Under the pieces are notes generated by a model, which saw only the letters and a program-made list of their open reading frames with translations, was not told the DNA's origin and did not search any database. Shown piece after piece: positions 1-12,415 of a stretch of DNA of 12,415 bases. The position numbers and the translations under genes are program-made. Positions within the stretch are counted from its first letter, which is position 1; each line of letters opens with the position of its first letter. The stretch comes from a bacterium (GTDB taxonomy: Bacteria > UBP7 > UBA6624 > JBBIMK01): contig JBBIMK010000033.1 of NCBI GenBank assembly GCA_037444445.1, forward strand, positions 1 to 12,415, written 5' to 3'.

Positions 1-202
1 GCGAGCCTCCCGGACCCTCGCCCCCGAGCCCCCCAGACTCCCCTGGGATGCCAGCGGTAAGTAGCCCGTAGAGATTGGCGAGTAGCGGTTCGGGGGTAGC
101 CTTCCACCCTCAAAAGCGGTAGAATAATGGTGGATGAGAAAGGTTGTGTAATGGAAAGAGAGAAAATGTTTTTAGTGCTTCCGTGATTCGGAAATGAGAA
201 GT

Positions 203-1285
203 TTATTTTTTGAGTGAGAGAATTATCAGGAACGCCAGGTTTGCGAGGAAGAGAAGGATGGCGATGGCGTTGAACAACCCACCCCACTGGCGAGCTGGAA
301 TCCAGAACATCAGGTCACCGGATAGCCGCAGAAGCAGGGAGAGGTGCAAAAGGCTTAAAGGGATATAGAGAGTGGGGGAGAAGGTGAAAGGAAGGTGTAA
401 GAGAGAGGGGAAGATTATCGGGGCGTGGCCGAAAATCATAGAGAAAACAAAGCCAAGAAAAAGGGAGTGGAGGATGGCATCGTAGGGGGGGGCAGCCGTT
501 GCGGTTCTGTAGAAAAGGGATAGAACACCGCCAACACCCAACCAGAGGTAAGCGAGGATGAGGCAGATGGAGATGTATCGGGGCAAGCCGACCTGGTGGA
601 GGTTGTGTCGGGCGATGTCATAGTTTACCAGCCAGAGGGCCAGGATGAGCATGCCCGCTCCTGCTATGGGAACTCCTGCACTATACGATTGTGGGAGTAA
701 AATCAGCCCGAGAGTGAAGGAGAGGATAGCGGAGAGGAAAATCGTGAGGCTCCCACGAGAGGGACGCAGGAGGCGGGAGAGTTCCAGTCGTTCGCCGGCG
801 ATGGTGATAAGGAGGAAGCCAGCCCACCAGAAAGCGACGATAGATAACCCGAAGCGGGCGAGCCAGAGAAGATTGCCAATGAACCAGAGGAGGGCGCCCA
901 ACCCCATCACAACGGTATAGAGGGCGTGCTGACGACGAATGAGAATTACGGACAGGGCCACCATTCCCAGACTTCCGGAGGTCATCAGGAGAATGCCCGC
1001 CTGATAGGGGAAGCCGAGGGAGAAGGAAAGAATGCCCAGGGCGGTGAGCAGGGGAACCGCATAAGACCAGGGTTTTTGTAGAGCGGTTGCTCGCTCCAGC
1101 CCGATGAGGGTGCCTAAAAAACCGGGGACCATCAAAGGGCCATGGAGGGCTGGTAGAGTTTCTGTCAGGGGAGGGAGGAGCCAGCCCAGGCGGAATAGCC
1201 CTCCATACAGCCCTGCCAGCAACGCCAGCATTCCCACCACCATTAAAGGGAAAAGAAAGACTGGCTTCTTCCTTACTTTATTCAC
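203..1285 (-). CDS. Polytopic integral membrane protein (about 11-12 predicted TM helices); family not recognised, only weak NnrS-like His/Gly helix motifs
   Basis: 360-aa ORF made almost entirely of hydrophobic helices with short loops. The start at 1285 is GTG; the first ATG would be M15 at 1243. It lies 39 nt downstream of the HD-GYP gene on the same strand. Two His-bearing helices are present (LHGPLMVPGFLG and HSLFLGFVFSMIFGHAP). Confidence 0.7.
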   Translation of the reverse strand: MNKVRKKPVFLFPLMVVGMLALLAGLYGGLFRLGWLLPPLTETLPALHGPLMVPGFLGTLIGLERATALQKPWSYAVPLLTALGILSFSLGFPYQAGILLMTSGSLGMVALSVILIRRQHALYTVVMGLGALLWFIGNLLWLARFGLSIVAFWWAGFLLITIAGERLELSRLLRPSRGSLTIFLSAILSFTLGLILLPQSYSAGVPIAGAGMLILALWLVNYDIARHNLHQVGLPRYISICLILAYLWLGVGGVLSLFYRTATAAPPYDAILHSLFLGFVFSMIFGHAPIIFPSLLHLPFTFSPTLYIPLSLLHLSLLLRLSGDLMFWIPARQWGGLFNAIAILLFLANLAFLIILSLKK

Positions 1286-1324
1286 AATTCATTCGGGGTG
1301 GAAAGATTTCACCGAAAGTATGTG

Positions 1325-3508
1325 CTACACATCTTTTAAGAGGGTAAGGAATTTCTCCAGCACCCGGGGGTCAAAATGTTTTCCTGCCTGCTCCTGGAGA
1401 TAATTCAGGGTTTTTTCCAGGGGCCAGGCTTTTCGGTAGGGACGGTCAGAAGTGAGGGCGTCCCACACATCCACGATGGAGAAGAGGCGGGCGGGTAATG
1501 GAATTTGCTCTCCTTTCAAGCCCCGGGGATACCCAGAGCCATCCCATTTCTCGTGGTGGCAGTAAGGAATATCTAAGGCGGGTCTGAGGAAATCAATAGG
1601 CGAGAGCATTTCGTAGGCAAACACGGGGTGCTTCCGCATAATAGCCCACTCCTCTTCCGTGAGGGGTCCGGGCTTGCAAAGGATGGCATCCGGGACACCG
1701 ATTTTCCCGATGTCATGAAGGAGAGCGCCCCGGCGGATATGCACCAGGGATTCTTCGGGGACATTCATCGCACGGGCGAGGCGCAGGGTCATCTCGGTCA
1801 CCCGCTGGGTATGCTGTTCCGTTTCTCGGTCCCTCAAGTCCAGGGCTTTCACCCAGCCTTCGAGGGTGGCATCATAAGCGAGGAGGAGTTCTGTATGGGA
1901 GCGCTGGAGGTTTTCAAATAGAGTGGCGCTATCTACGGCGACAGCGGCTTGCCCTGCGAAGGTGTCCAGGAACTCGCGCCATTCCCCGGTGGGGTCCAGG
2001 GGGGCGCGGTGGAAGACTTCCAGCACGCCTTTCACTTCACCCCTGGCGATGAGAGGAAAGCCGAAATAGGTGACGAAATCCTCCGCTGGAAGCAGAGGGG
2101 AGCGGGTGAACGAGTTTTCTCGTTTGAGGTCAGGGATATGGATTGTGCGGCGTTCCAGTGCGGCTTTACCCGCATAACCCTCTCCCAGGCGCAGGTGAGT
2201 TCGCTGGAGAGCCCGGGTGCGGAATCCTTTCCCTGCGGCGAACTCCAGAGTGAGCGTTTGTGGATTGAAAAGCAGGATGTCAACAGCATGAACCCCCAGT
2301 TGCCTCATCAATTGCTCCAGTAGCACATTCAGGGTAAGGCGGAGGTCCAGGCTTCCGGAAATAGCCAGGTCAATGGTTCGGAGGGCAGACATGCGTTCTT
2401 GATGGCTCTTCAGCGAAGTCACCATTTGATTGAAGGTTTTTGCCAGTGTTCCAACTTCATCCTCCTTTGTGGCAGGGATGGGCTCGGGCCAGGAGCCTTT
2501 GCGAAGGATTTCAGCGGCCTGGGTGACCGCACTGATAGGATTCGCGATTCCCCGAGCCACAAATAATCCAACGACTCCGGATAAGAGAAGGGAGAGGAAG
2601 CCAATAATCAATAGCATCCCGTGAACCTGCTGATAGGGCGCCAGTTCTTCTTTCAAAGATTTTTGACTTAAATACCACGCGTTCTTTGGGCCGATGTAAG
2701 AAGAGAGTAAAGAGGCATGAGAAAGGTATTTTTCCTTGCCTGAAGAAATGGTGAACGCAGTGACGGTGTGTGGATTCTGCGGGGAAGAGATTTGTTGATA
2801 CAGCGTTTGAATTTCTTTCCGGGTTGCGGGTTCCTGAAATTGGCGAAGATGGCTTTCTGGCAATGAAGAGGCGACCACTCTGTCCTCTACGAAGAAGGTG
2901 ATGTCGGTATGAGTGGCTTCTTTGAGATAATTTGCCAGGCTATCGTTCAGTAGAGCGCCCGTGAGCAATACGCCCCAGACTTTCTTCTCGGCGGCGCCCG
3001 GAACTGCAGTGAGTAAAGGGACAGCGGCAAATTGAAAGAGCTGGCCATCCAGGAGGGCAATCTCAACCGAGTCTTCCCCTTTCAACGCCTTCAGGATGGC
3101 AGGCTCGCTGAGGAGGGTTCCTCGTTCTCCGGGTTTGTCAGTTCTAACCAGTAGCCTTCCATTTTCATCCGTGAGCCAGATGAAGTCCACTTTCATCGTC
3201 TGGAGGTAAGATTTTGCGGTATCCAGGATGGTGGGGTAATCTGCTGCGACGAGCACTGTTCTTAAGATAGGAAGTTCAGTCACCAGCCGTGCCTGGGAAA
3301 GTAATTCCTGGCTCCGGGCATTCAGGAAATGCCAGAAAAAAGAGTCAGCCTCCTGCATTTTTTTATTCACGTTCTGGATGGTGTTTTTCTGAAGCACGAA
3401 GTGGTTTGCGAGGAAGACGGAGGTAGAGAAGCCTAAAATCACGAGAATCAAAGAGGTGAGGATTTTCGCCCTTAAGCTGAAACCGAGTCGGATTCGCGGT
3501 ATTTTCAT
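1325..3508 (-). CDS. Membrane-bound HD-GYP domain c-di-GMP phosphodiesterase with periplasmic Cache-like sensor, HAMP and GAF domains
   Basis: The C-terminus carries the HD-GYP signatures LLHDIGKIGVPDAIL and HHEKWDGSGYPRGL. Two TM segments (ILTSLILVILGF and LLIIGFLSLLLSGVVGLFVA) bracket a loop of about 260 aa. A HAMP-like linker (ANPISAVTQAAE...EVGTLAKTFNQM) and a GAF-like region follow. I place the start at ATG 3506-3508 (M43 of the track ORF), 7 nt after the upstream stop. An alternative ATG at 3559 would overlap the OMP gene. Confidence 0.92.
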   Translation of the reverse strand: MKIPRIRLGFSLRAKILTSLILVILGFSTSVFLANHFVLQKNTIQNVNKKMQEADSFFWHFLNARSQELLSQARLVTELPILRTVLVAADYPTILDTAKSYLQTMKVDFIWLTDENGRLLVRTDKPGERGTLLSEPAILKALKGEDSVEIALLDGQLFQFAAVPLLTAVPGAAEKKVWGVLLTGALLNDSLANYLKEATHTDITFFVEDRVVASSLPESHLRQFQEPATRKEIQTLYQQISSPQNPHTVTAFTISSGKEKYLSHASLLSSYIGPKNAWYLSQKSLKEELAPYQQVHGMLLIIGFLSLLLSGVVGLFVARGIANPISAVTQAAEILRKGSWPEPIPATKEDEVGTLAKTFNQMVTSLKSHQERMSALRTIDLAISGSLDLRLTLNVLLEQLMRQLGVHAVDILLFNPQTLTLEFAAGKGFRTRALQRTHLRLGEGYAGKAALERRTIHIPDLKRENSFTRSPLLPAEDFVTYFGFPLIARGEVKGVLEVFHRAPLDPTGEWREFLDTFAGQAAVAVDSATLFENLQRSHTELLLAYDATLEGWVKALDLRDRETEQHTQRVTEMTLRLARAMNVPEESLVHIRRGALLHDIGKIGVPDAILCKPGPLTEEEWAIMRKHPVFAYEMLSPIDFLRPALDIPYCHHEKWDGSGYPRGLKGEQIPLPARLFSIVDVWDALTSDRPYRKAWPLEKTLNYLQEQAGKHFDPRVLEKFLTLLKDV

Positions 3509-3515
3509 AAGATGT

Positions 3516-4472
3516 CTAAAAGGGCTGGATATAAAGGAGTTGGGCTTGAAGGTTTTCATCCTTCTCGCCGCCGATGATTTTTCTGGAAGCGTTGATGGAA
3601 AGAGTAATGAAGGGGCGAAGGAAATACTTTGCACCCACGATGACCTGCCGGATATTATCCGGGGGAGAGGCGTTGGTTCGGCGGAGGGTTTCTATTCTTA
3701 GAATACCTGTGAGTTTTGGGAGAGTGGGGAAGTGATAGAAGGTATCCTGATAAAAACCCCAGTAATCATGGGATTCTCCGTTTTGTATTTCGCCCAGAAT
3801 CCATTCACCCCGGAGAATGAGATACGGGAAAGAAATCCGCCAATCCAGGCCTTCTGCCCTGGATTTCTTTCTCACTGGAATAGCATTGATTGGGGTGAGG
3901 TAACTTCCGCGGTAGAAATTGACGCCGAGGATGAGAGGCTCCTGATAGGTTTGCAGGTGAAGAGAAAAATCTTTGAGACCATTTTCCAGGCCGTTCAGGC
4001 CGTCTGATTGAGAGTTCATCAGAGCGGATTCATAACTCAGTTTGGGGTTACCTCCGAGAAGGAGGATTCCCGCGTCTTCTTTCGCCAGCTGGAATGGCAT
4101 CCGGGCTTCGCTCTTGACCAGGGGCTTTTGAAGGATACCCATATAGTCCTGCTCCGAGCGCTGGTAGATGCCGAAAGGAAGGCGAAACTTTCCCGCTTTC
4201 ACTGTTCCCAGGGGGGTTTCCAGGGATAGAAAAGCCTCTTCTATAAAGAATTCTTCCTCTTCCACATTGAGATTGGTAAAAAATCGGAATATCTTCCTGT
4301 TCTGATAATCCAGCCTCAATTGGAGTTCCGGGCTTTCAATGGAGGCTTTTTTACTCCGTTGCTGTTCCCCAATCAGTTCCACCTGTGCTTCGCCCCGAAT
4401 GTCTGCTGAGGCAGGGGTGAAAAACAGAAGAGCCTGCAGGAGGCAGAAGGGAAGGAGGCATAGGAACTTCAA
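3516..4472 (-). CDS. Outer-membrane beta-barrel (porin-like) protein
   Basis: N-terminal signal peptide MKFLCLLPFCLLQALLFFTPASA. Amphipathic beta-strand pattern with alternating residues, ending in the OMP-type C-terminal motif LLYIQPF. The TTG start at 4470-4472 overlaps the TGA stop of the upstream gene (TTGA). Confidence 0.7.
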   Translation of the reverse strand: MKFLCLLPFCLLQALLFFTPASADIRGEAQVELIGEQQRSKKASIESPELQLRLDYQNRKIFRFFTNLNVEEEEFFIEEAFLSLETPLGTVKAGKFRLPFGIYQRSEQDYMGILQKPLVKSEARMPFQLAKEDAGILLLGGNPKLSYESALMNSQSDGLNGLENGLKDFSLHLQTYQEPLILGVNFYRGSYLTPINAIPVRKKSRAEGLDWRISFPYLILRGEWILGEIQNGESHDYWGFYQDTFYHFPTLPKLTGILRIETLRRTNASPPDNIRQVIVGAKYFLRPFITLSINASRKIIGGEKDENLQAQLLYIQPF

Positions 4473-5116
4473 TGGGTGGAATCTTTCTCCTTTTGTTCAG
4501 CGCCCCGTTTCAGGGTCAGGGTCAATTCCACATTCCCCCCGGGGGAAACATTCACCTTCCTCTCCAGTTCCGGGTAAAGTTCGTGCCACACCTTGAGGGT
4601 ATATTCTCCAGCGGGAATATCCTTGATGGAGAAAGTTCCTCGGGTATCGGTGGTGGAAAAGTAAGGGTTTTCAAGTACCAGGATATAGGCGTTCATATGA
4701 GGGTGGATATTACAGAAGATAGCGTGAACCCCGGGTTTATCAAATTTCACGGTTTTCTTGGCACCTTTAGGGAACAGTCCCAGGTCAAACTTTTTTCCGT
4801 GGAAAAGGGAAAAAACATTGTGCAAAACATCGTCGTTATTGGGAAAATCCACTTTGCTTCCCAGCAGAACTGGGAGAACATGAGGAATGAAATTTTTATT
4901 TCTCTGCTCCATAGATAAGTTTTTTGAGGGAGACTGTTTCACTTTTGGACCGTCTATATAAACTACGGAATCGGGGAGGGCTTTTTTCTTCTCGTCCTGG
5001 ACGATTCCGTGTATTTCTCCATTCTCCGAAGCGGACACCATAAGGATAGCCAACCCGTAGAAAAAAGCGAGCACACAAAAAGTGAAATGCCACCTTCTCC
5101 TACTTTGATGAACCAT
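4469..5116 (-). CDS. Periplasmic or membrane-anchored cupredoxin (amicyanin-like type-1 copper site) with a C-terminal carboxypeptidase-regulatory-like beta-sandwich domain
   Basis: N-terminal hydrophobic anchor/signal (FTFCVLAFFYGLAILMVSA). A complete T1Cu ligand set is present: H99 in VLHNVF, and C135-x2-H138-x2-M141 in FCNIHPHM. Compare amicyanin PHNV and CTPHPFM. The C-terminal GTFSIKDIPAGEYTLKVWHE...VELTL is typical of CarboxypepD_reg-like domains. Confidence 0.8.
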   Translation of the reverse strand: MVHQSRRRWHFTFCVLAFFYGLAILMVSASENGEIHGIVQDEKKKALPDSVVYIDGPKVKQSPSKNLSMEQRNKNFIPHVLPVLLGSKVDFPNNDDVLHNVFSLFHGKKFDLGLFPKGAKKTVKFDKPGVHAIFCNIHPHMNAYILVLENPYFSTTDTRGTFSIKDIPAGEYTLKVWHELYPELERKVNVSPGGNVELTLTLKRGAEQKEKDSTH

Positions 5117-5125
5117 CGCAATTTC

Positions 5126-5134
5126 ATTATACCA
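5126..5134 (-). promoter_or_regulatory. Candidate extended -10 promoter element (TGGTATAAT on the minus strand) for the cupredoxin operon
   Basis: The minus strand reads GGATGGTATAATGAAATTGCGATGG. Only 9 nt separate TATAAT from the ATG at 5116, and no Shine-Dalgarno lies between them. The -35 region is poor (TTCCAT). Confidence 0.3.
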
Positions 5135-5220
5135 TCCGGGGCAGAAGTATGGAATAGGGGAAGGGTGCTGGTTATTTCAACGGCAGGAAAAGAACTCTGT
5201 GTATTGGAAGGGGTGGGAGT

Positions 5221-5574
5221 TCAAGGGTTCTGGCGTCTGATTCTGGAAAGGAGGAAGTTTTTCAGGGCGACAGCGCTGTTGTGCTGGATGTCTCTGGCGC
5301 TGAAAAGAAGGGTGAGATTTCCCTTGTGTTCTGCCTCTACGAGAGGTATCCAGGCGGAGGGGTTGTTGTTCAATTCGGCGAAATAACGGCGCTGGAATTC
5401 CTTCCACTTCGCCGGGTCGTGGCTGAACCAGGTGCGCAATTGGGGGCTGGGCGCTACCTCCTTCAGCCAGGCATCCACCTTAACGGATTCTTTTTTCATT
5501 CCTCGGGGCCAGAGGCGTTCCACCAGATAGCGCAGGCCATCGTCAGGCTCCGGTGGGTCGTAGATGCGCTTCAC
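5221..5574 (-). CDS. DUF488 (YeaO-like) family protein
   Basis: KRIYDPPEPDDGLRYLVERLWPRGMKKE...WLKEVAPSPQLRTWFSHDPAKWKEFQRRYFAEL matches the DUF488/YeaO pattern. The track start is GTG 5574. The in-frame upstream codons read LIRV, and a GGAGG lies 7 nt before CTG 5583, so the true start may be non-canonical (see findings). Confidence 0.9.
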   Translation of the reverse strand: MKRIYDPPEPDDGLRYLVERLWPRGMKKESVKVDAWLKEVAPSPQLRTWFSHDPAKWKEFQRRYFAELNNNPSAWIPLVEAEHKGNLTLLFSARDIQHNSAVALKNFLLSRIRRQNP

Positions 5575-5596
5575 CCGAATCAGGACAGCACCTCCG

Positions 5597-6031
5597 TCAA
5601 GAAGGGCTTACCGCACTGGGTGGACGGATTCTACCAAAAATCAGATAGAAAAAGTAGAGAAGACTGAGGATTTGAAGTGTCATACCGATGAGAGCGAGGG
5701 TATAGGGCAATGAGCCACCTGCCCAGAAAGGCTCGGCTACGCTTCGGAGTAGGGTACCAGCATTGAACAGCCCATAGAGAATCATCCCTTCTCGCTCGGT
5801 GGTGTAGTGTGGAGGCTCTTTTTTCCTCGGGAACATCCAGAGAGCCACTCCCATAATGATTTGAATGACTGCTCCGAAAAGTATCAGGTGAACATGAACC
5901 GTTCGCCAGGATGTCGCCCACGCAAAAGCGGGGTAGCGATACCCTAAAAACATGAAAAGCCCGAGAATAATTCCTGTCAGTAGGTAAACGAGAGAAGTTT
6001 TCAGCATCCACCGCTGGTAGTTATATCTCAT
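5597..6031 (-). CDS. Small 4-TM integral membrane protein, function unknown
   Basis: 144-aa ORF with an ATG start, AAGGAA 9 nt upstream and four long hydrophobic helices. It has a conserved-looking His helix (VHVHLILFGAVIQIIMGVALWMFPR). Its stop lies 22 nt upstream of the DUF488 gene. Confidence 0.72.
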   Translation of the reverse strand: MRYNYQRWMLKTSLVYLLTGIILGLFMFLGYRYPAFAWATSWRTVHVHLILFGAVIQIIMGVALWMFPRKKEPPHYTTEREGMILYGLFNAGTLLRSVAEPFWAGGSLPYTLALIGMTLQILSLLYFFYLIFGRIRPPSAVSPS

Positions 6032-6162
6032 CGTTCATCATTCCTTACTGTCGTTGCTAAGATTTCACGATTCATACTGCTCTCCAGAGGATTGAAGAGC
6101 AAGTGGCTTACTCATCCGTTGCGCAGGGGCTGTTTTTAATTTCCGGATGAATTCGTGCCGAT

Positions 6163-6369
6163 TCACATTTCAACCTCAATTTGTTTTACCCGAACCTCCC
6201 GATGAAACAGAATTTCTTCCTCTTCTTCATCAACGGATATGCTTGCCTGATATTTTCTTGCAATTCCTGAAGAGTTTTTTTCCTGCTGAATACGCTGGAA
6301 CTTCCCTGACCCTGGCACATACCAGCCCTCCACCTCCCGGTAAACCATCGGAAAACACTTCTGAATCAT
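6163..6369 (-). CDS. Possible small hypothetical protein (68 aa)
   Basis: Open frame inside an otherwise empty 445-nt gap. The internal ATG at 6367-6369 is preceded by GGGAG with 7-nt spacing. The product is hydrophilic with an acidic run (DEEEEE). The opposite-strand 96-aa ORF is Pro/Ser/Phe-rich with no RBS and looks like its antisense shadow. No family recognised. Confidence 0.3.
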   Translation of the reverse strand: MIQKCFPMVYREVEGWYVPGSGKFQRIQQEKNSSGIARKYQASISVDEEEEEILFHREVRVKQIEVEM

Positions 6370-6476
6370 TCCCGTGCTCCCTTTTCTCATCTCCAGTTAA
6401 TCGTAAGATTTTTCAAGGGAGAAGTCAATTCTCATAAGACTGATGAGGGGACATAGTTGCTGACTTCAATGAAGTG

Positions 6477-6962
6477 CTAACCTTTCTTCAATTTTAGCAG
6501 TGTTTGTTTGACCTCTTCCGCATGGCCATCCACCTTCACGGGCATCCAGATGTAGGCAATCTTCCCCTCCGGGTCGATGAGAAAGGTGCTCCGGACTACA
6601 CCGGGGAGCACTCTTCCGTAAAGTTTTTTGGGCTTCCAGGCGCCGTAGGCAGAAAGGACCTGATGATTCGGGTCGCTTAATAAGGTGACCTTCAAGGAAT
6701 GCCTGGTTTGGAAATTGCAATGGCTTTTTACGGAGTCGGGGCTAATGCCCAGCACCGATGCACCCAGATTTTCAAACTCTTGCAAATGATGAGTAAAATC
6801 TATGGCTTCCCGGGTGCAACCCGGCGTGTTATCCCTGGGGTAGAAATAGAGAACCACCCACCTGTGATGGAAATCAGCGAGCCGCACGGGGGTGCCATTC
6901 TGGTCTGGGAGGGAGAAGTCTGGCGCCCTTTCACCCACTTTTACCCCTTTCTCCTTGTCCAT
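6477..6962 (-). CDS. bcp: Thioredoxin-dependent thiol peroxidase (peroxiredoxin Bcp/PrxQ)
   Basis: GERAPDFSLPDQNGTPVRLADF...VVLYFYPRDNTPGCTREA is the classic Bcp active-site block. I prefer ATG 6960-6962, preceded by AGGTGGTGAG, over the track GTG at 6974. Confidence 0.95.
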   Translation of the reverse strand: MDKEKGVKVGERAPDFSLPDQNGTPVRLADFHHRWVVLYFYPRDNTPGCTREAIDFTHHLQEFENLGASVLGISPDSVKSHCNFQTRHSLKVTLLSDPNHQVLSAYGAWKPKKLYGRVLPGVVRSTFLIDPEGKIAYIWMPVKVDGHAEEVKQTLLKLKKG

Positions 6963-6983
6963 ATCTCTCACCACCTGAAACTC

Positions 6984-7012
6984 ATTATACAGAAGTCAGG
7001 CATCACCCGCAA
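6984..7012 (-). promoter_or_regulatory. Candidate sigma70-type promoter of bcp (TTGCGG-17 nt-TATAAT)
   Basis: The minus strand reads TTGCGGGTGATGCCTGACTTCTGTATAATGAG, with the -10 element ending about 21 nt before the ATG. Confidence 0.4.
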
Positions 7013-7100
7013 TCCCTCTGACAGCACAGAAGGGAATTTCTATGGTTGGACATCCGGGATGGCAGAGTCTGGATGCAGAATATTTTATACAGAGGAAGAC

Positions 7101-7129
7101 TTGACGAACAATGGAGTAAGTGGTAATTT
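7101..7129 (+). promoter_or_regulatory. Candidate promoter of the ferredoxin gene (TTGACG-17 nt-TAATTT)
   Basis: Good -35, exact 17-nt spacer and a weak -10. It would give a leader of about 115 nt ending in a very strong SD (AAGGAAGGAGGAAGGAAG) before ATG 7249. Confidence 0.3.
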
Positions 7130-7248
7130 ATGATGGGTAACGGGTAGAGCGGGTTAAAAACCCTGCCGGTTCAGGCGGAGTTATTGCCCGTCTGCTGTGC
7201 CCTGCAGAGGCGATTGATAGGGCCTCGTAAGGAAGGAGGAAGGAAGAA

Positions 7249-7494
7249 ATGACCTATGTGATTTGCGAGCCGTGCATCGGCGTGAAGGACAAGTCCTGCG
7301 TGGAGGTTTGCCCGGTGGACTGCATCCACGAGGCACCGGATGGTTCTTCCCCGCAACTCTACATCAACCCGGCAGAGTGCATAGACTGCGGAGCCTGTGT
7401 ATCCGCCTGCCCGGTGGAAGCCATCTTCGCCGAGAGCGATGTGCCCGATAAATGGAAACACTTTATCCAGATTAACGCTGACTTTTTCAAGTAA
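7249..7494 (+). CDS. fdxA: 7Fe ferredoxin ([3Fe-4S][4Fe-4S], Thermus/Mycobacterium FdxA type)
   Basis: TYVICEPCIGVKDKSCVEVCPVDCIHE...CIDCGACVSACPVEAIF carries the Cys pattern C-x2-C-x7-C-x3-CP ... C-x2-C-x2-C-x3-CP. It closely resembles Thermus thermophilus ferredoxin. A strong SD precedes the gene. Confidence 0.95.
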   Translation: MTYVICEPCIGVKDKSCVEVCPVDCIHEAPDGSSPQLYINPAECIDCGACVSACPVEAIFAESDVPDKWKHFIQINADFFK

Positions 7495-7714
7495 CCCTCC
7501 CGCAAGGTCAGACGGTTTTCAGCGTTAGCCAATCAGATAGGCGGCGATGCCAGGACACAGGGCTACGCCGAAAAATCCATTAGATGCAAATATGCTTCCG
7601 GTCAGGGGCAACCTTCAAAAGATGAACGCTAAAATCAGCCAAAGGCGAGGAGACAGGCATAGTCGGATTATATCTTCTTCAGTCGGTAAGTAAGCCCATT
7701 GCCTCATCAGCAGG

Positions 7715-8251
7715 TTAGTAGCGGACGCCGATGTTCACATGCCAGAGCCCACTTTTCATAGGCTCATCGGAGGCCATGAATCCACCTTCAATGAAGGAAT
7801 CTATCCAGTAGTCACCGAAGAAATCAACGCCGAGGACGGCATCCCAGGCGAAGGAGGATTCATCTTGCAGTCCCATAGAGGGAATGGCGGAATCAGGGAA
7901 GTATAGACCTCCACCTGCGCCCAGATAGAGAGCGGTGCTCTGAAAGTTCTGGAAACGCCATCGGACTTTGACGAAAAGAGGATATAAATTCGCCTTTCCG
8001 ACGGTGGAGTCATGAATTTCCACCCAGTTTCCTGCCAGGGAGAGGCTAAAGGGGGATTTTTCCCAGACCTTCCAGTCCACTCCCACGGAGAATTCCGATT
8101 TCTCCTGGGTTTTTGCTCTTGTGGAGAAGACGCCGTAGGTGAAGCCGAAGTCCGCCCCGTTCACAGGCTGAGGAAGCCACAGGAGGCTGGAGATGAAAGC
8201 CAGCCCCACCAGAAGTTCCACCCCTTTACCTGCCCATCTACCTCCGTTCAT
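7715..8251 (-). CDS. Small outer-membrane beta-barrel protein (OmpW/OmpA-barrel-like)
   Basis: Signal-like N-terminus (LLVGLAFISSLLWLPQPVNGA), alternating beta-strand pattern and a C-terminal NIGVRY with a terminal aromatic residue. I prefer ATG 8249-8251, preceded by AGGTGGTGAGG, over the track GTG at 8260. Confidence 0.65.
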   Translation of the reverse strand: MNGGRWAGKGVELLVGLAFISSLLWLPQPVNGADFGFTYGVFSTRAKTQEKSEFSVGVDWKVWEKSPFSLSLAGNWVEIHDSTVGKANLYPLFVKVRWRFQNFQSTALYLGAGGGLYFPDSAIPSMGLQDESSFAWDAVLGVDFFGDYWIDSFIEGGFMASDEPMKSGLWHVNIGVRY

Positions 8252-8269
8252 CCTCACCACCTATCCTGT

Positions 8270-8297
8270 ATTATATACCATTTCTTGTAAAATGCAA
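8270..8297 (-). promoter_or_regulatory. Candidate sigma70 promoter of the small OMP gene (TTGCAT-16 nt-TATAAT)
   Basis: The minus strand reads TTGCATTTTACAAGAAATGGTATATAATACAGG. The -10 element ends about 18 nt before the ATG. Confidence 0.45.
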
Positions 8298-8307
8298 AAT
8301 GGTGCTG

Positions 8308-8362
8308 GGAAGTCCCGAATAAATCAAGACTTCCGCAGGAGCGGGCGGGACGCAACCTGCGG
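8308..8362 (-). terminator. Two tandem hairpins downstream of the toxin-antitoxin pair (possible terminator)
   Basis: CCGCAGG/CCTGCGG (8333-8339 with 8356-8362) and GGAAGTC/GACTTCC (8308-8314 with 8328-8334) form 7-bp stems. On the minus strand they are followed by T-rich stretches (TTGATTTATT and ATTTTGCATTTT). Not a canonical tight terminator. Confidence 0.3.
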
Positions 8363-8414
8363 TCTTCATCCCCTGCGCGTCTTATTTCTCACAGGGTTTT
8401 CAATGGAAAACGAA

Positions 8415-8597
8415 TCACATTGGCGAAATCAAGGTCAGGGTAATAAGACACAATTTTTGGGCACAGCATAAGTCATAGACCTGCTGGTCGGAAATCCCTT
8501 GAAGTCCCTGCTCCTGGAAGGTATGTGCTTCATAGCCTGCGTCCCGAAGGATTTTCACGATTCGTATCCCAAAATTCTCGTCCAGCTTGAACTTCAT
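8415..8597 (-). CDS. DUF5615 family PIN-like toxin, apparently frameshifted and 3'-truncated (probable pseudogene)
   Basis: MKFKLDENFGIRIVKILRDAGYEAHTFQEQGLQGISDQQVYDLC...LITL matches the N-terminal half of DUF5615/COG4634 proteins. The frame ends after 60 aa. A 1-nt shift at about 8436 restores the family motif DLDFANVIRFP, but that frame stops 14 codons later. The ATG overlaps the antitoxin stop (ATGA). Confidence 0.6.
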   Translation of the reverse strand: MKFKLDENFGIRIVKILRDAGYEAHTFQEQGLQGISDQQVYDLCCAQKLCLITLTLISPM

Positions 8598-8836
8598 CCG
8601 ACTGACTTCATCGGAATCTCCACATACCGCTCCCGGGACATTTCAGCGCCATACGCGATGCAAGCCCGAATGTCCTCATCGGTAAGGTGCGGATACTCCT
8701 GAAGAATCTCGCCCACGCTCATACCGCCGGCAAGCAGGTCCAGGACCAGGGACATCCAGATGCGGGTGCCACGAACGCACGGCTTGCCGAAGCAAACAGC
8801 TGGATCAATGCTAATGCGTGCCTGCCAGTCTTCCAT
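8594..8836 (-). CDS. DUF433 (COG2442) domain antitoxin-like protein
   Basis: MEDWQARISIDPAVCFGKPCVRGTRIWMSLVLDLLAGGMSVGEILQEYPHLTDEDIRACIAYGAE is a typical full-length DUF433 protein of 80 aa. GGAGG/GAAAGG lies upstream of ATG 8834-8836. The 118 extra N-terminal codons of the track ORF run through repeat/hairpin DNA and are not coding. Confidence 0.85.
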   Translation of the reverse strand: MEDWQARISIDPAVCFGKPCVRGTRIWMSLVLDLLAGGMSVGEILQEYPHLTDEDIRACIAYGAEMSRERYVEIPMKSVG

Positions 8837-9040
8837 CCTTTCCGCGCCTCCACACACGATTCTAACCCCTTTGTTCGGTAAAGAGAAGCAAGTTTGAGAA
8901 ACCTGCACCCTGCCACGCCGACGACCCCATTTTCGTCTACATCCCTTCCAGATTTCCATTATTACACACTTTCGGGGTCCCGAAGTTCGTAGTGGCACCG
9001 CTGAAATATAGCGGGGCTTTAAATCGCCCGATAAGGAGTT

Positions 9041-9100
9041 GTCATGCTGAACGCAGTGAAGCATCTCAATTGGGATTCTTCGCCTTCGGCTCAGAATGAC
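9041..9100. repeat. Imperfect palindromic REP/MITE-like element
   Basis: The arms are GTCATGCTGAACGCAGTGAAGCATCTC and TCTTCGCCTTCGGCTCAGAATGAC. The reverse complement of the second arm is GTCATTCTGAGCCGAAGGCGAAGA. They pair imperfectly around a loop of about 9 nt. Translated, the element gives the VILS.../...LHCVQHD-type peptides that recur in spurious small ORFs over such repeats. Confidence 0.5.
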
Positions 9101-9104
9101 ACTC

Positions 9105-9137
9105 GGGAGTCCCGTTTCAAAACAAGCGGGACTTCCC
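9105..9137. other. Strong stem-loop (10-13 bp stem, one bulge) adjoining the palindromic element
   Basis: GGGAGTCCCGTTT-caaaac-AAGCGGGACTTCCC. There is no flanking U-run on either strand, so it is not a canonical intrinsic terminator. Confidence 0.5.
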
Positions 9138-9180
9138 TGCGCTCCACCGGTTGAAATCCATAGTTGAGGTATAATACAAA

Positions 9181-10488
9181 GTGAAGGCAATGACCAAAAA
9201 GGGGGAAATCATTTCAAGGAGAATAGAAAGGGAGGGAAGGAAGTCCGTCAGCCAGCCCGAGCAGACTTACCCCTCCGCAAAGCCAGGGGTTCACACCGGC
9301 TGGAAGCATCCGGGCGGCAAGCTATTAGCGTGTGGAGCCGAATCCCTCACGGATGCAGAACTCCTCGCTATCCTGCTGGGAACTGGGATGAAGGGCAAGC
9401 CAGCCGAGACACTTGCCAGTGAAATTCTCTCCAGATACGGCACACTGGAGCAAGCGATTCTTCATCTGTCGTCAGCGGTGGGAAGATTTAAGGGAATCGG
9501 GAAAGTCAAGAGCGTTCGTCTTGCGGCCATAAAAGAACTTCTTCAGAGGCTTTTCCCGGATGTTTACTTGAGAGAATCCCTGGGCACTCCATCTCCGCCC
9601 CTTTTTGAGGTAGCGCCATTAAAACCTCCACCTTCCACAGAAACAGCAATACAAGGGGATAAAAAATTATTTTTCCAGGCAAACCATATAACGATTATCC
9701 ACGACGATTTTCTAACAACGGATGCTATTAAAGAGAATTCGGTTGACTTGATTGTCACTTCACCTCCCTATAATGTGGACATCAAATATAACTCCTACGA
9801 TGATAAGATGCCTTATGAGATTTATCTGGAGTTCACCCAGAAATGGATTGAGAGAGCCTATCAATTGGCTAAAGAAGATGGTCGCTTTTGCCTCAATATT
9901 CCTCTGGATAAAAATAAGGGTGGACAACAAAGTGTTTTTGCTGACATTGTGTCCATTGCCAAGAAAATGGGCTGGAAATACCACTCTGCTATCGTCTGGA
10001 ATGAGCAGAATATATCTCGGCGAACTGCGTGGGGCTCCTGGCTTAGCGCCACTGCACCTTTTGTGATTGCGCCTGTAGAAATGATTGTAATTTTATACAA
10101 GAAAAAATGGAGAAAAACCAGCGGGTCCAGGATGTCGGATATTTCTAAAAATGAGTTTATGGATTGGACAAACGGCGTTTGGTCTTTCTCGGGTGAAAGT
10201 AAAAAGAAAGTGGGGCATCCCGCTCCATTTCCTGTGGAGCTCCCGAAGAGGTGTATCAAATTGTTCACTTTCGTGGGGGATACGGTGCTTGACCCATTTT
10301 TAGGTAGCGGCTCTACCCTGATTGCTTGTGCCTTAACTCACAGAGCAGGAATAGGCGTTGAAATTGATAAAAATTATTGCGAGATTGCCAAACAAAGGCT
10401 GGTCAAGGAAACCCGTATTACTCAACTTACATCTCCGCATGCTGAGTTAAGAGATTCCACCGCGGGAAAGCATGAAAAAATCATATAA
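9181..10488 (+). CDS. Chimeric protein: RadC-family N-terminal helix-hairpin-helix region (no JAB/MPN domain) fused to a beta-class N4-cytosine/N6-adenine DNA methyltransferase
   Basis: aa 44-125 (GGKLLACGAESLTDAELLAILLGTGMKGKPAETLASEILSRYGTLEQAIL...FKGIGKVKSVRLAAIKELLQRL) align with the RadC/YicR N-terminus ([30 protein letters not shown]...). aa 165-410 carry methyltransferase motif IV (DLIVTSPPY, 9760-9771), then HPAPFPVELP, then motif I (VLDPFLGSGST, about 10297). Order IV before I defines the beta class. The start is GTG 9181 (GAGG 11 nt upstream) or ATG 9190. Confidence 0.9.
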   Translation: MKAMTKKGEIISRRIEREGRKSVSQPEQTYPSAKPGVHTGWKHPGGKLLACGAESLTDAELLAILLGTGMKGKPAETLASEILSRYGTLEQAILHLSSAVGRFKGIGKVKSVRLAAIKELLQRLFPDVYLRESLGTPSPPLFEVAPLKPPPSTETAIQGDKKLFFQANHITIIHDDFLTTDAIKENSVDLIVTSPPYNVDIKYNSYDDKMPYEIYLEFTQKWIERAYQLAKEDGRFCLNIPLDKNKGGQQSVFADIVSIAKKMGWKYHSAIVWNEQNISRRTAWGSWLSATAPFVIAPVEMIVILYKKKWRKTSGSRMSDISKNEFMDWTNGVWSFSGESKKKVGHPAPFPVELPKRCIKLFTFVGDTVLDPFLGSGSTLIACALTHRAGIGVEIDKNYCEIAKQRLVKETRITQLTSPHAELRDSTAGKHEKII

Positions 10489-11068
10489 GACTGTAGAGGG
10501 AAGGCAAAGTTTCGTCGCAAAAAGTGGAAAGGAGTTAGAGAAAAGGGTTACTGAATATCTGAGATTGGAACTTGGAAAACATGGAATACAAATCATCCAC
10601 GGAGATGAAATTAAAAAAAACAGAACAAAATACACAGGGCTTTACGAATATCTTTCTATTCCAACCAAAGAATCCTATACGAAGCAGGTATGGGGAGATA
10701 TAGATTTGATTGCGGTGGATAATCAGAAGAAGCCGATAGCCATTATCAGTTGTAAAACAAGTTTCCATGGTAGATTCACCGAAACACTTTTCTATAGTGT
10801 GATATTCAGGTTACTTACTCGCATTAAATTTGTCCTGGTCACTTCAGATGAAGGCAGGGGGCAAAAAGGGAAGTGGCAATCAGAATTGGGTAGTGAAAAG
10901 AAACCCACGAAAGATAGAATACTGGCAACTACTTTCCTGGATGGTCTTTACACGACGAATGATGGAACAAAACTGGGTGGAATCGTGAAATTTATCACGG
11001 ATTTACCGAAAGATATCCTGCATTGGAAGGAAGACATTATAAAAATCCATTCTTCACAGTTACCGTAA
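10472..11068 (+). CDS. Putative Type II restriction endonuclease (PD-(D/E)xK-like), cognate of the upstream methyltransferase
   Basis: 198-aa ORF overlapping the methyltransferase stop by 17 nt, with the same low GC. The candidate catalytic block is GDIDLIAV-x10-IISCKTSFHGRFTE (D76/D78 ... S93-x-K95 ... E104). This arrangement is reminiscent of the D...SxK...E variant seen in Cfr10I/NgoMIV-type enzymes. No specific family recognised by eye. Confidence 0.6.
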   Translation: MKKSYKTVEGRQSFVAKSGKELEKRVTEYLRLELGKHGIQIIHGDEIKKNRTKYTGLYEYLSIPTKESYTKQVWGDIDLIAVDNQKKPIAIISCKTSFHGRFTETLFYSVIFRLLTRIKFVLVTSDEGRGQKGKWQSELGSEKKPTKDRILATTFLDGLYTTNDGTKLGGIVKFITDLPKDILHWKEDIIKIHSSQLP

Positions 11069-11218
11069 ACAAGATATGCTGAATATGGCATCCATACTCG
11101 TATACCAGGACCCAAGGGGGGACTTATGCCGGGCTGGGGAGTGGTGAGTGAACTTTTGGAAGAAAAACTTGAGAGGATAGAAATACCTGATGAGGACGAG
11201 GGTAGGAGGTGAAAAAAA

Positions 11219-11446
11219 ATGGCAAAATACCAATGCCAAAACTGTGGCTATAAGGGTTCTGAACTGGTCTTCCAATTGACTGATTATACTTACTGCGTAG
11301 CGACAAATGACGATGAACCAGAATATAGGGCAACAATTCCGGATTGGGTGATACATAAAGCGGTTGGGGAGGCGGAGATCGAGCAACCAGTGGGCTGTCC
11401 TAAATGTCATGCCTGGGGTGCAACAAATTTTGAGATGATTGAGTAG
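11219..11446 (+). CDS. Small acidic zinc-ribbon protein, function unknown
   Basis: 75 aa with C6-x2-C9 and C60-x2-C63. There are 12 Asp/Glu against 5 Lys/Arg. A strong SD (GGTAGGAGGTGA) lies 7 nt before the ATG. Low GC, like the R-M genes. Confidence 0.55.
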   Translation: MAKYQCQNCGYKGSELVFQLTDYTYCVATNDDEPEYRATIPDWVIHKAVGEAEIEQPVGCPKCHAWGATNFEMIE

Positions 11447-11596
11447 CCTCACAGCAAGGGGTCAGACACCTGTTTGTGGTATATCGTATAATAATGCTGT
11501 GGAATTGGGAGATATAAGAACTGAAGTGGGCTATTTAGATAGGGTGGGAGGGGTCTGGTTGCTGGAAACTGGCATCTGGGAGGGGGGAATTGAGGT

Positions 11597-12322
11597 ATGA
11601 AGGGGAAGAAGGAAGAGGATTTCGGGCTGGATGTAGTGGCTTTCGGTGCCCATCCGGATGATGTGGAAATTGGAGCGGGCGCCTTTTTATTAAAGATGAA
11701 GCGGCTGGGTTATTCCACGGGCGTTGTGCATTTAACGGATGGGGATATGGGGAAGGGTGACCCGAAGAAGAGGCGAGAAGAAGCCCGAGCCGCCGCGCGC
11801 CTCCTGGAGGTGGATGTGCTGGAGTTTATGAACCTGGGCGACTGCCGGCTGGAGGATAATCAGGAGAACCGGGTGAAGGTGGCGGGGATGATTCGGCGTC
11901 TTCGTCCGCGTCTGGTTCTGGCTCCTTACTTTGGCACCGAGCCCGGGCGAGGGCTGGGGCACGCGGACCACATTGCAGGAGGCTATCTGGTTACCCACGC
12001 GGCCAACTTCGCGCATTTAGAAAAATTCCCTGCTTTTGGAAAAGCCCACGCCATCCAGCGCCTGATGTATTACCAGTTCAGCCCGTTCATCAAGCCCTCT
12101 ATCGTGGTGCCCGTGGATGAGGAATTTCCCATTTCCATAGAAGCGCTGAAACAGCATGAAACCCAGTTCGGGAAGATAGAGCACGAGTGGTTTCGTGAGT
12201 TGATAGAGGCGGGGGCAAAGCGTTTGGGCTGGATGGTGGGCGCCCGCTTCGCCCTGGGCTTCCTCCTGACCGCCCCCCTGCGTGTGGATGACCCCCTCAA
12301 ACTCCTTTGCCCCGAAGAGTAG
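11597..12322 (+). CDS. PIG-L/LmbE family N-acetylglucosaminyl deacetylase (BshB1-like)
   Basis: VVAFGAHPDDVEIGAGAFLLK...VVHLTDGDMG...LGHADH are the PIG-L family zinc-binding and catalytic motifs (AHPDD, HxDH). Host-like high GC. Confidence 0.9.
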   Translation: MKGKKEEDFGLDVVAFGAHPDDVEIGAGAFLLKMKRLGYSTGVVHLTDGDMGKGDPKKRREEARAAARLLEVDVLEFMNLGDCRLEDNQENRVKVAGMIRRLRPRLVLAPYFGTEPGRGLGHADHIAGGYLVTHAANFAHLEKFPAFGKAHAIQRLMYYQFSPFIKPSIVVPVDEEFPISIEALKQHETQFGKIEHEWFRELIEAGAKRLGWMVGARFALGFLLTAPLRVDDPLKLLCPEE

Positions 12323-12415
12323 CCAGTAGTGATGAAAGGGCAGGTTTGGAACCCGCCCATCCGTGCTTGTATGTTAAAGTTTTTTAAGCATACCGAGGAT
12401 AGAAAGAATCGCCAT

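Follow-up and report, generated by a model that had tools for sequence, protein, structure and literature searches.

A UPF0758_N-methyltransferase fusion in a UBP7 bacterium may point to an apparently undescribed partnership between helix-hairpin-helix and restriction-modification genes

Organization and conservation of the fusion gene

We analyzed a 12,415-nt stretch of DNA from a bacterium of the GTDB lineage UBP7 (contig JBBIMK010000033.1 of assembly GCA_037444445.1, positions 1 to 12,415 of the forward strand), which is called the window in the following. At positions 9181 to 10488 it contains a single open reading frame (ORF) in which a helix-hairpin-helix (HhH) module of the UPF0758_N family is joined in frame to a complete DNA methyltransferase. 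The ORF, its parts and the sequence element in front of it are as follows.

9181..10488, + strand: HhH-methyltransferase fusion ORF, 435 aa, GTG start
9170..9177, + strand: conserved TATAATAC box, -10-like, just 5' of the start codon
9181..9300, + strand: basic low-complexity N-terminal tail, aa 1-40; the start codon is either GTG 9181 or ATG 9190
9301..9567, + strand: complete UPF0758_N (HhH)2 core, aa 41-129, predicted to bind DNA and delimited by the PF20582 match and by alignment with the standalone family
9568..9660, + strand: Pro/Ser/Thr-rich linker, aa 130-160, which holds the putative recombination junction (about 9565-9618), TTG 9568 and ATA 9649-9651
9661..10488, + strand: beta-class N6_N4 DNA methyltransferase domain, aa 161-435, with SPPY at nt 9760-9771 and motif I at nt 10288-10314

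In a Pfam search each half of the protein received a domain of its own: UPF0758_N (PF20582) at aa 44-111 with an E-value of 8.5e-15, and N6_N4_Mtase (PF01555) at aa 188-405 with an E-value of 4e-48, the latter covering profile positions 1-221 of 221. The motif order, SPPY at aa 194 followed by motif I (LDPFLGSGS) at aa 370, is that of beta-class enzymes. The RadC JAB domain (PF04002) had no Pfam match in the fusion ORF or in the neighbouring ORFs, and the NCBIfam RadC models, including PRK00024, aligned to the fusion only over model positions 3-82 of 212. The initial annotation, made from the letters of the sequence, had described the ORF as a RadC-family N-terminus without its JAB half followed by a complete beta-class SPPY methyltransferase, and the profile searches bear out both parts of this description. 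Within the (HhH)2 core, the motif WKHPGGKL lies at aa 41-48 and GIGKVK at aa 105-110. The tail in front of it begins with "MKAM..KK" in the window and also in L003 and L176, two related loci described below.

The TATAATAC box was invariant in the window, L001, L003 and L176, and the upstream sequence surrounding it could not be aligned between these loci. A generic sigma-70 scan called no full promoter at this position. From its conservation, the box is a probable promoter element of the HhH gene and hence of the whole operon formed by the fusion and the endonuclease gene that follows it. With respect to translation, it had been stated that no in-frame ATG, GTG or TTG lies between the RadC part and motif IV of the methyltransferase. 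As a statement about codons this is wrong, because in-frame TTG codons are present at 9568 (codon 130) and 9748 (codon 190). Neither of them has a Shine-Dalgarno-like sequence or lies at the start position of the homologues, and the practical conclusion that the methyltransferase has no plausible independent start still stands as an inference.

The same junction was found in L001, a Logan contig assembled from another sample (run SRR11582170), which is 95.6% identical to the window at the nucleotide level over 9074-11526. L001 reads open in the same frame across the HhH part and the linker and on into the N-terminus of the methyltransferase, and the continuity of the three parts is in identical frame up to nt 9706 in the two independent assemblies. 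Since an independent assembly has the same junction, the junction is not an assembly chimera, and a mis-join, which had been named as the finding that would undo the fusion call, is countered. Furthermore, the databases list an identical protein of 435 aa from a 17.3-kb NCBI contig, and it is in the frame of the window that the N-terminus conserved in all methyltransferase homologues (..NDDFLTT..) is kept. A fusion of two complete domains at this locus is thus real and conserved.

Synonymous and non-synonymous differences were counted between the window and L001 for each part of the region:

N-terminal tail (9181-9300): 0 synonymous : 8 non-synonymous
HhH core: 5 synonymous : 0 non-synonymous
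linker: 1 synonymous : 3 non-synonymous
methyltransferase: 16 synonymous : 4 non-synonymous
endonuclease: 6 synonymous : 9 non-synonymous
zinc-ribbon ORF (downstream of the endonuclease gene, see below): 4 synonymous : 6 non-synonymous

By these counts, both folded domains have been under purifying selection since the junction arose. The N-terminal tail appears to be weakly constrained, being either fast-evolving or under diversifying pressure, and the linker behaves like unconstrained sequence, as would be expected if it were largely the translated former leader of the cassette.

The 3' end of L001 overlaps by 17 nt with L171, a contig of the same run that carries a PIG-L gene 97% identical to the one downstream of the cassette in the window. 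Since L001 abuts this PIG-L-bearing contig, the sister population keeps the gene order of the window. The comparison of synteny with close relatives, which the initial annotation had proposed, could be carried out in part: L171 was the only close relative and had the same arrangement, and the next PIG-L relatives (L172 and L173, ≤ 60% identity) shared no synteny. A cassette-free relative was not found among them, and for this reason the insertion event is not reconstructable.

Origin of the two halves

To identify the gene from which the N-terminal half is derived, we compared it with its closest homologues. In the best 120 homologues of aa 1-140, PF20582 was the sole domain in all cases (91-183 aa). 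All of them were standalone proteins of 91-121 aa except P0121 (183 aa), which is the frameshifted L001 copy of the junction. They share the motif WKHPGGKL and end 8-12 residues past the last conserved helix. The HhH part of the fusion is up to 57% identical to this standalone family; W41, H43, P44, G45, G46, K47 and L48 are invariant in the family alignments, and GIGKVK and AAIKELLQRL of the window align with the family, so that nothing of the core is missing up to and including the last conserved helix. When one genome per GTDB species was scanned, 289 relatives were obtained, of which 80 loci were kept. In the 76 of these 80 loci in which HPGGKL could be placed automatically, the stop codon was 82-103 aa after it. 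Projected onto the window this interval corresponds to nt 9562-9618, which is the position of the break in GC content. Stop-to-stop ORFs were 94-167 aa long in all 80 genome loci, and the ORF of the window runs for 392 aa past the motif. Standalone proteins of about 95-120 aa with UPF0758_N only occur in metagenome-assembled genomes annotated as Nitrospirota, Thermodesulfobacteriota, Chloroflexota, Bacteroidota and other phyla.

As a test for lost or separate JAB sequences, a JAB profile was built from 34 canonical RadC C-terminal halves. It gave 82 matches in 80 control loci with canonical RadC genes. In the 80 standalone loci it gave none, and no JAB gene was present within +/-5 kb. On the six-frame translation of the window it found nothing at the locus, the best E-value being 0.008 at 3-314 on the minus strand. 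The control loci came from a metagenome scan with the N-terminal 135 aa, which had returned only canonical RadC-like genes of ≤ 43% identity. Because the standalone relatives end at the junction and no JAB remnant was detected, the resident gene must have been natively JAB-less, a complete (HhH)2 gene from which nothing but the stop codon and the variable C-terminal tail has disappeared. The proposal that a radC gene had been decapitated at this site therefore fails. The more general proposal of an insertion is retained as far as a foreign methyltransferase-endonuclease (M-R) cassette is concerned, whose methyltransferase has an ATG of its own in the homologues, and is dropped with respect to a resident radC gene and a deleted JAB half.

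Canonical RadC/YicR (UPF0758) proteins consist of an N-terminal HhH module and a C-terminal JAB domain of the RadC type (Iyer et al. 2011, PMC3239186). The N-terminal module of the fusion is homologous to theirs over positions 3-82 of 212 of the RadC model. However, JAB is absent from the window and its nearest relatives, which have WKHPGGKL as their clade motif, and in place of a fused JAB domain their genomic partner is the gene of a DNA methyltransferase or of a restriction-modification (R-M) system; in canonical RadC loci, type IIG neighbours were found in 0 of 80. Judged by the JAB test, the fusion is not a member of the RadC family.

The family profile matched the (HhH)2 repeats of topoisomerase V (E 5e-9) and, less strongly, Hef, XPF, DisA and NusA. 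An AlphaFold2 model of the HhH module, which did not include the rest of the fusion, was all-helical with a pLDDT of 79.9. (HhH)2 domains contact the DNA backbone without sequence specificity. Among the best-scoring members of the family there were also tandem proteins of about 190-215 aa with two UPF0758_N copies each (P0361, P0362, P0363, P0365, P0376, P0387, P0389 and P0394), and in P0402 (711 aa) UPF0758_N is fused to a long array of tetratricopeptide repeats.

The C-terminal half has a different background. The top 120 homologues of the whole protein covered about 59% of the query and were mostly standalone methyltransferases of about 265 aa; PF20582 was absent from all of them. Their N-termini are of the MNKKLYFQ.. 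or MLFFQ.. type, and their starts map to codons 157-162 of the window. The closest homologues (80-87% identity) are standalone methyltransferase genes in M-R cassettes with an ATG of their own and without UPF0758_N upstream. In L002, which is 84% identical at the nucleotide level and whose homology extends upstream to about nt 9604, an ATG is present at 9649-9651, where the window and L001 have ATA. Two other loci with homologues of 80-82% identity, L088 and L089, consist of simple M-R pairs in which the endonuclease is of the HNH type and which no HhH gene precedes. The C-terminal part also matched the PADLOC model MTase_II (E 1.4e-93). The best solved structure was 2zie (E 5.9e-29), followed by N4-cytosine methyltransferases and CcrM (PDB 6pbd). 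Based on the SPPY motif and these structural relatives, the enzyme is probably an N4-cytosine methyltransferase.

Downstream of the fusion, the following further features were assigned:

10472..11068, + strand: BsaWI-like type II restriction endonuclease gene, overlapping the fusion ORF by 17 nt; match to RE_BsaWI (PF18643), E 4.2e-13
11219..11446, + strand: 75-aa zinc-ribbon ORF with four cysteines (CxxC...CxxC) and a strong Shine-Dalgarno sequence, within the low-GC block
9601..11500, no strand: low-GC block, 41.9% GC compared to about 51% in the rest of the window

The endonuclease of the window is intact, 80% identical to that of L002, and contains a D...SCK motif. An intact endonuclease would require a functional methyltransferase, and the fusion or a product derived from it presumably methylates DNA. 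The system resembles CCGG-family type II R-M systems, in which BsaWI, Cfr10I or NgoMIV-like endonucleases are combined with N4-cytosine beta-class methyltransferases, in its PF18643 endonuclease, in the beta-class order with SPPY and in the overlap of the M and R genes, and it differs in that homologues of its methyltransferase at about 80% identity are paired with HNH endonucleases.

The hand counts of GC content given in the initial annotation for eight 60-nt lines were exact (58.3, 60.0, 55.0, 45.0, 31.7, 40.0, 36.7 and 38.3%), and its placement of the compositional switch inside the linker agreed with our analysis. The best single change point within the fusion ORF was at nt 9618, where the GC content falls from 54.2% to 42.0% (z = 4.2). 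The GC content of 9601-11068 was 40.9%. The lowest stretch of equal size elsewhere in the window had 47.1% (mean 51.3 +/- 2.7%), and the break thus exceeds the local noise. Third codon positions had a GC content of 57.9% in the HhH part, 44.4% in the methyltransferase and 37.9% in the endonuclease, compared to 68.0% in the PIG-L gene that follows downstream. The low-GC block is most simply read as horizontally acquired DNA, and its methyltransferase and endonuclease genes would represent a foreign type II R-M cassette. The M-R genes are bracketed by a direct repeat of 12 nt, ACTTGAGAGAAT (9566-9577) and ACTTGAGAGGAT (11167-11178), the first copy of which lies at the junction. It was considered as a target-site duplication and rejected, as 3.6 kb of sequence should contain matches of 11 in 12 bases by chance.

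HhH genes and methyltransferases in other genomes

Large complete ORFs located directly 3' of standalone HhH genes were of the N6_Mtase/Eco57I/MmeI type in 30 of 31 cases, and most of these downstream ORFs overlapped the HhH stop codon, by 4-38 nt. One of the large downstream ORFs matched the PADLOC model REase_MTase_IIG with an E-value of 1.3e-91. In a search with a profile of these downstream proteins, a type IIG-type gene was detected in 58 of the 80 standalone loci, always downstream and on the same strand; it was directly adjacent in 44 of these loci and separated by a gap of 445-1,988 nt in the other 14. When loci were required to have 2.5 kb or more of sequence downstream, such a gene was present in 46 of 55 (about 84%), compared to none of the 80 canonical RadC control loci.

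The gaps in those of the 14 loci that were scanned contained small genes of the toxin-antitoxin type, namely for ParE (84 aa), a PIN protein (about 139 aa), a PHD-like protein (94 aa) and PBECR2; examples from the range L008-L087 are L019 5482-5733, L028 5510-5926, L016 5284-5586 and L023 5301-5582. In four loci a 101-aa ORF of the PBECR2/DUF4258 (RelE-like) type overlaps the HhH stop codon, which places the HhH gene in the antitoxin position. In L006 (5001-8547) and L007 (1927-5473) the pair of HhH and type IIG genes is surrounded by a type III CRISPR-Cas locus: it is flanked on either side by RAMP genes, and Cmr2/Cas10 lies downstream. In another four loci (L017, L024, L040 and L072, at about 5290-6260) the standalone HhH gene is followed by a gene for a pyridoxal phosphate-dependent enzyme (PALP, about 322-345 aa). 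Because these four loci have PALP instead of a defence gene, the HhH family is not exclusively linked to R-M systems.

A search for further fusions with the HhH family profile against 1.84 billion representative proteins revealed three proteins in which UPF0758_N is combined with an N6_N4 methyltransferase:

P0428, 516 aa, annotated as "DNA methyltransferase [bacterium JZ-2024 1]", present on many long contigs of up to 310 kb
P0438, 388 aa, annotated as "DNA modification methylase", a cluster of 7 on contigs of up to 1.56 Mb
P0393, 277 aa, derived from L176, with an ORF that stops just after motif I

Like the fusion of the window, these proteins have an N-terminal UPF0758_N domain, a linker and an SPPY N6_N4 methyltransferase in one ORF. 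However, in all three motif I precedes SPPY. Since their methyltransferases are of another permutation class, without close homology to that of the window, these fusions must have arisen independently of it. P0428 also differs from the window in its uniform GC content, 52.7% for HhH and 51.3% for the methyltransferase, and the MjaV-like endonuclease gene in its vicinity is no more than a fragment. The question of whether any database protein spans both halves had been raised in the initial annotation. It received a split answer: none did among the top 120 homologues, and fusions to another methyltransferase class were found by the profile search. In plasmid and phage collections no record spanned both halves. 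The possibility of a genuine architecture in which an HhH module is recruited to a methyltransferase, which had been put forward as one of two readings, gains support from P0428, P0438 and P0393 and from the type IIG coupling of the standalone family.

L002, L003 and L176 originate from one metagenome, JGI sample 3300009943. L176 and L003 belong to the "MKAM" HhH clade of the window, with 71-75% nucleotide identity from the TATAATAC box at about 9164-9170. Each has a different low-GC cargo at the 3' end of the HhH gene. That of L176 is a fused methyltransferase of the P0428 type with an internal stop codon, and the GC content falls from 49.2% in the HhH part to 37.7% behind it. The HhH domain of L003 is cut short by its cargo, a PD-(D/E)xK-like protein of 351 aa, with a drop in GC content from 55.8% for HhH to 34.4% for the cargo. 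This protein (L003 716-1771) has an N-terminal PD-(D/E)xK-like motif, DILLAAGDEILLIELK, and a winged-helix region with a sub-threshold match to Sso10a (28 bits compared to a cut-off of 60 bits), and it matched the PADLOC candidates PDC-S18 and PDC-S41 weakly.

Compared to the standalone UPF0758_N-only proteins, the fusion belongs to the same family, contains the complete domain and is likewise coupled on the same strand to a methyltransferase-containing gene. It differs in that its ORF lacks the family stop codon and a covalent fusion takes the place of the stop/start overlap. The partners are also different: a gamma-class type IIG protein of about 1,100 aa in the standalone family, and a beta-class type II methyltransferase with a separate endonuclease in the window, which contains no type IIG gene. 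By these features, lacking both the family stop and the type IIG partner, the fusion is not a typical member of the standalone family.

Counterparts of the overall layout are known among type II methyltransferases. M.SsoII consists of an N-terminal regulatory region, a flexible linker and a methyltransferase domain (PMC3978073). M.SsoII and M.Ecl18kI share with the fusion an N-terminal DNA-binding domain and a flexible linker in a type II methyltransferase encoded in an R-M operon. Their DNA-binding domain is a sequence-specific helix-turn-helix (HTH), whereas that of the window is (HhH)2 and is expected to bind independently of sequence. The non-specific DNA-binding domain that CcrM possesses in addition to its catalytic part aids DNA engagement. 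Like the fusion, CcrM is a beta-class N6_N4 methyltransferase with an additional DNA-binding domain, but this domain lies at the C-terminus and has no relationship to HhH, and CcrM is an orphan enzyme that methylates adenine. By analogy, the fusion would function in the manner of a type II methyltransferase that has received an additional DNA-binding domain at its N-terminus, a kind known from M.SsoII, M.Ecl18kI and the proteins P0099, P0108 and P0111, which belong to the same methyltransferase clade and carry N-terminal HTH_17/MerR domains.

The searchable literature contained no description of UPF0758_N-only proteins, of their type IIG association or of HhH-methyltransferase fusions, and PADLOC has no model for the HhH protein. 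The earlier remark that the architecture is undescribed is thus uncontradicted in this literature; such proteins are present in the databases, with no annotation beyond "DNA methyltransferase". UPF0758_N-methyltransferase fusions appear in at least three other lineages and seem to be undescribed there as well.

Origin and possible role of the fusion

We lean towards the explanation that the ORF is a real, lineage-specific in-frame fusion between a complete HhH gene and the methyltransferase of a type II cassette, with the following origin and role. A recombination at about nt 9565-9618 would have attached the cassette to the HhH gene at its 3' end, in place of the sequence that had followed there. 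Because the family stop codon usually overlaps the start of the next gene, replacement of the downstream gene would remove the HhH stop and yield a read-through. With the stop codon lost, the former 5' leader of the cassette would now be read as the Pro/Ser/Thr-rich linker, and the start codon of the methyltransferase itself would have changed from ATG to the present ATA. The methyltransferase would then be made as an HhH-linker-methyltransferase protein from the HhH promoter and start, and the endonuclease would be translated from the same mRNA. In this protein the (HhH)2 module may bind the DNA backbone without sequence preference and tether the methyltransferase via the flexible linker, in addition to supplying the promoter and start from which the R-M module is expressed. 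Since the HhH family is habitually coupled to type IIG genes and was fused independently elsewhere, the fusion is probably not a meaningless accident. It appears to be a single-lineage event that points to a broader and apparently undescribed partnership.

Several observations weigh against this explanation. In L001 one additional A follows nt 9706 and breaks the ORF up into products of 183 aa and 262 aa, and a deletion in an A8 run shifts the frame of the endonuclease gene; the system may be decaying in at least one lineage, or these differences may be assembly errors of L001. There may be weak internal initiation at TTG 9568 or ATA 9649. With the HhH model, Foldseek returned XPF/Hef HhH domains as top matches, none of them significant (E 0.3-0.8, TM 0.39-0.52). 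Expression of the fusion, its methylation activity and its DNA binding are all inferred. Fusions are also rare: there were none in the 80 genome loci or in the 120 closest homologues, and 3 in the top 150 representatives. Finally, the distances of HhH and type IIG proteins were not correlated (Mantel r = 0.115; the observed value was reached in 281 of 2000 permutations). A tight co-evolution of the two proteins was rejected by this mirror-tree test, and the lack of co-variation would fit an exchange of cargo behind a conserved HhH gene better than a tightly co-evolving pair.

The last result also bears on a rather unlikely but serious alternative, in which the fusion is a neutral accident: the cassette landed behind a small expressed HhH gene or replaced its partner, the HhH module adds nothing to methylation, and the sole benefit is a borrowed promoter and start. 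Besides the missing co-divergence of HhH and type IIG proteins, the sharp GC break at the junction, the weakly constrained linker and the usual 4-38 nt overlap, by which gene replacement readily removes the stop codon, are in line with it. So are the three different low-GC cargos found at the 3' ends of "MKAM"-type HhH genes in one metagenome, of which that in L003 truncates the HhH domain and that in L176 has an internal stop. An accident does not readily account for the 5 synonymous and 0 non-synonymous differences in the HhH core since the fusion, for downstream partners that are overwhelmingly methyltransferase-containing rather than random genes, or for the recurrence of fusions to another methyltransferase class in unrelated lineages, on many long contigs and with uniform GC content. 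We consider it hardly likely that the ORF is an artefact of assembly or sequencing, or a decaying remnant without a functional fusion protein. The indel that separates the halves in L001, the frameshift in its endonuclease gene and the in-frame stop in the fused methyltransferase of L176 would fit this explanation. It is opposed by the identical frame in two independent assemblies up to nt 9706, the preserved ..NDDFLTT.. terminus, the purifying selection on both domains together with the intact endonuclease of the window, and the identical protein on record from the 17.3-kb NCBI contig.

The HhH module might alternatively act in autoregulation. Like the N-terminal HTH region of M.SsoII or a C protein, it would bind its own promoter and time the expression of methyltransferase and endonuclease. 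In C-R operons a small regulatory gene precedes the endonuclease gene, and the arrangement of a small DNA-binding gene upstream of, and overlapping, a gene with an R function mimics this order. The linker-joined regulatory region of M.SsoII, the HTH_17/MerR domains in P0099, P0108 and P0111 and the conserved promoter box point in the same direction. However, (HhH)2 binding is sequence-independent, in agreement with the profile matches to topoisomerase V, Hef, XPF and NusA, Pfam detected no HTH family in aa 1-160, and no conserved operator-like repeat was identified near 9100-9200, which makes autoregulation improbable. The interruption of a full-length radC gene by the R-M cassette with deletion of the JAB half is largely refuted. 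The match of the N-terminal part to RadC family models and the GC break at the junction had suggested it, but the closest relatives are standalone, JAB-less proteins with WKHPGGKL that end at the junction position, the JAB profile was empty at the locus and in the 80 standalone loci compared to 82 matches in the control loci, and the sister loci L003 and L176 of the same clade lack JAB as well.

Beyond the fusion itself, we tentatively propose that JAB-less UPF0758_N (HhH)2 proteins are an unrecognized accessory or expression module of R-M systems, encoded by a promoter-bearing 5' gene with exchangeable methyltransferase cargo; this is a possibility that we rate lower than the fusion scenario above. 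The coupling may take the form of overlapping stop and start codons or of an in-frame fusion, and the cargo would be a type IIG gene in about 84% of the assessable loci and a fused type II methyltransferase in at least four lineages including that of the window. If this proposal holds, the window represents a "Rosetta-stone" fusion that points to the methyltransferase as the working partner of the HhH protein. Both type II methyltransferases and type IIG enzymes are regarded as sufficient by themselves, and in catalogues of defence systems such as PADLOC the type IIG model consists of one gene. With a small, conserved and occasionally fused (HhH)2 partner, R-M systems would gain a component, and the widespread "RadC N-terminal" domain, whose role is disputed, would receive its first concrete functional context. 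The window offers a natural covalent fusion for comparison with a truncated version. Should the HhH gene be only an expression platform for incoming cargo of the R-M and toxin-antitoxin kind, it would identify a site at which selfish genes land repeatedly.

The surroundings of the cassette showed some additional features. The zinc-ribbon ORF at 11219..11446 is kept in L001 and gave only sub-threshold zinc-ribbon matches, so that no family was assigned; it may or may not belong to the R-M cassette. Its status as a conserved cassette member was rejected, as it is unrelated to the 75-aa ORF that follows the endonuclease gene in L089. Rfam and tRNA scans of the window gave no match and hence no tRNA-type integration site. 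The 345-nt divergent intergenic region in front of the fusion contains a stem-loop of 13 bp (9105-9136, + strand, GGGAGUCCCGUUU...AAGCGGGACUUCC) with a z-score of -2.78 compared to shuffled sequences; it is mostly kept in L001 and has no Rfam match.

The flanking genes had been named as DUF433 and PIG-L, and Pfam confirmed both; a look-up of the PIG-L protein of the window returned no exact record. The DUF433 gene, with a probable start near 8836, forms a toxin-antitoxin-like pair with a DUF5615/PIN-like gene (8415-8597; the pair spans 8415-8836 on the minus strand) that is transcribed divergently from the fusion gene. With this pair and the R-M cassette, the region resembles a small defence or addiction island. 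In L171 (797-8258), past the point corresponding to the end of the window, genes for a PemK toxin, Cas2 and Cas1 and a gene for a 941-aa protein follow downstream of PIG-L, which would place a CRISPR-Cas locus about 3 kb downstream of the R-M cassette in the sister population.

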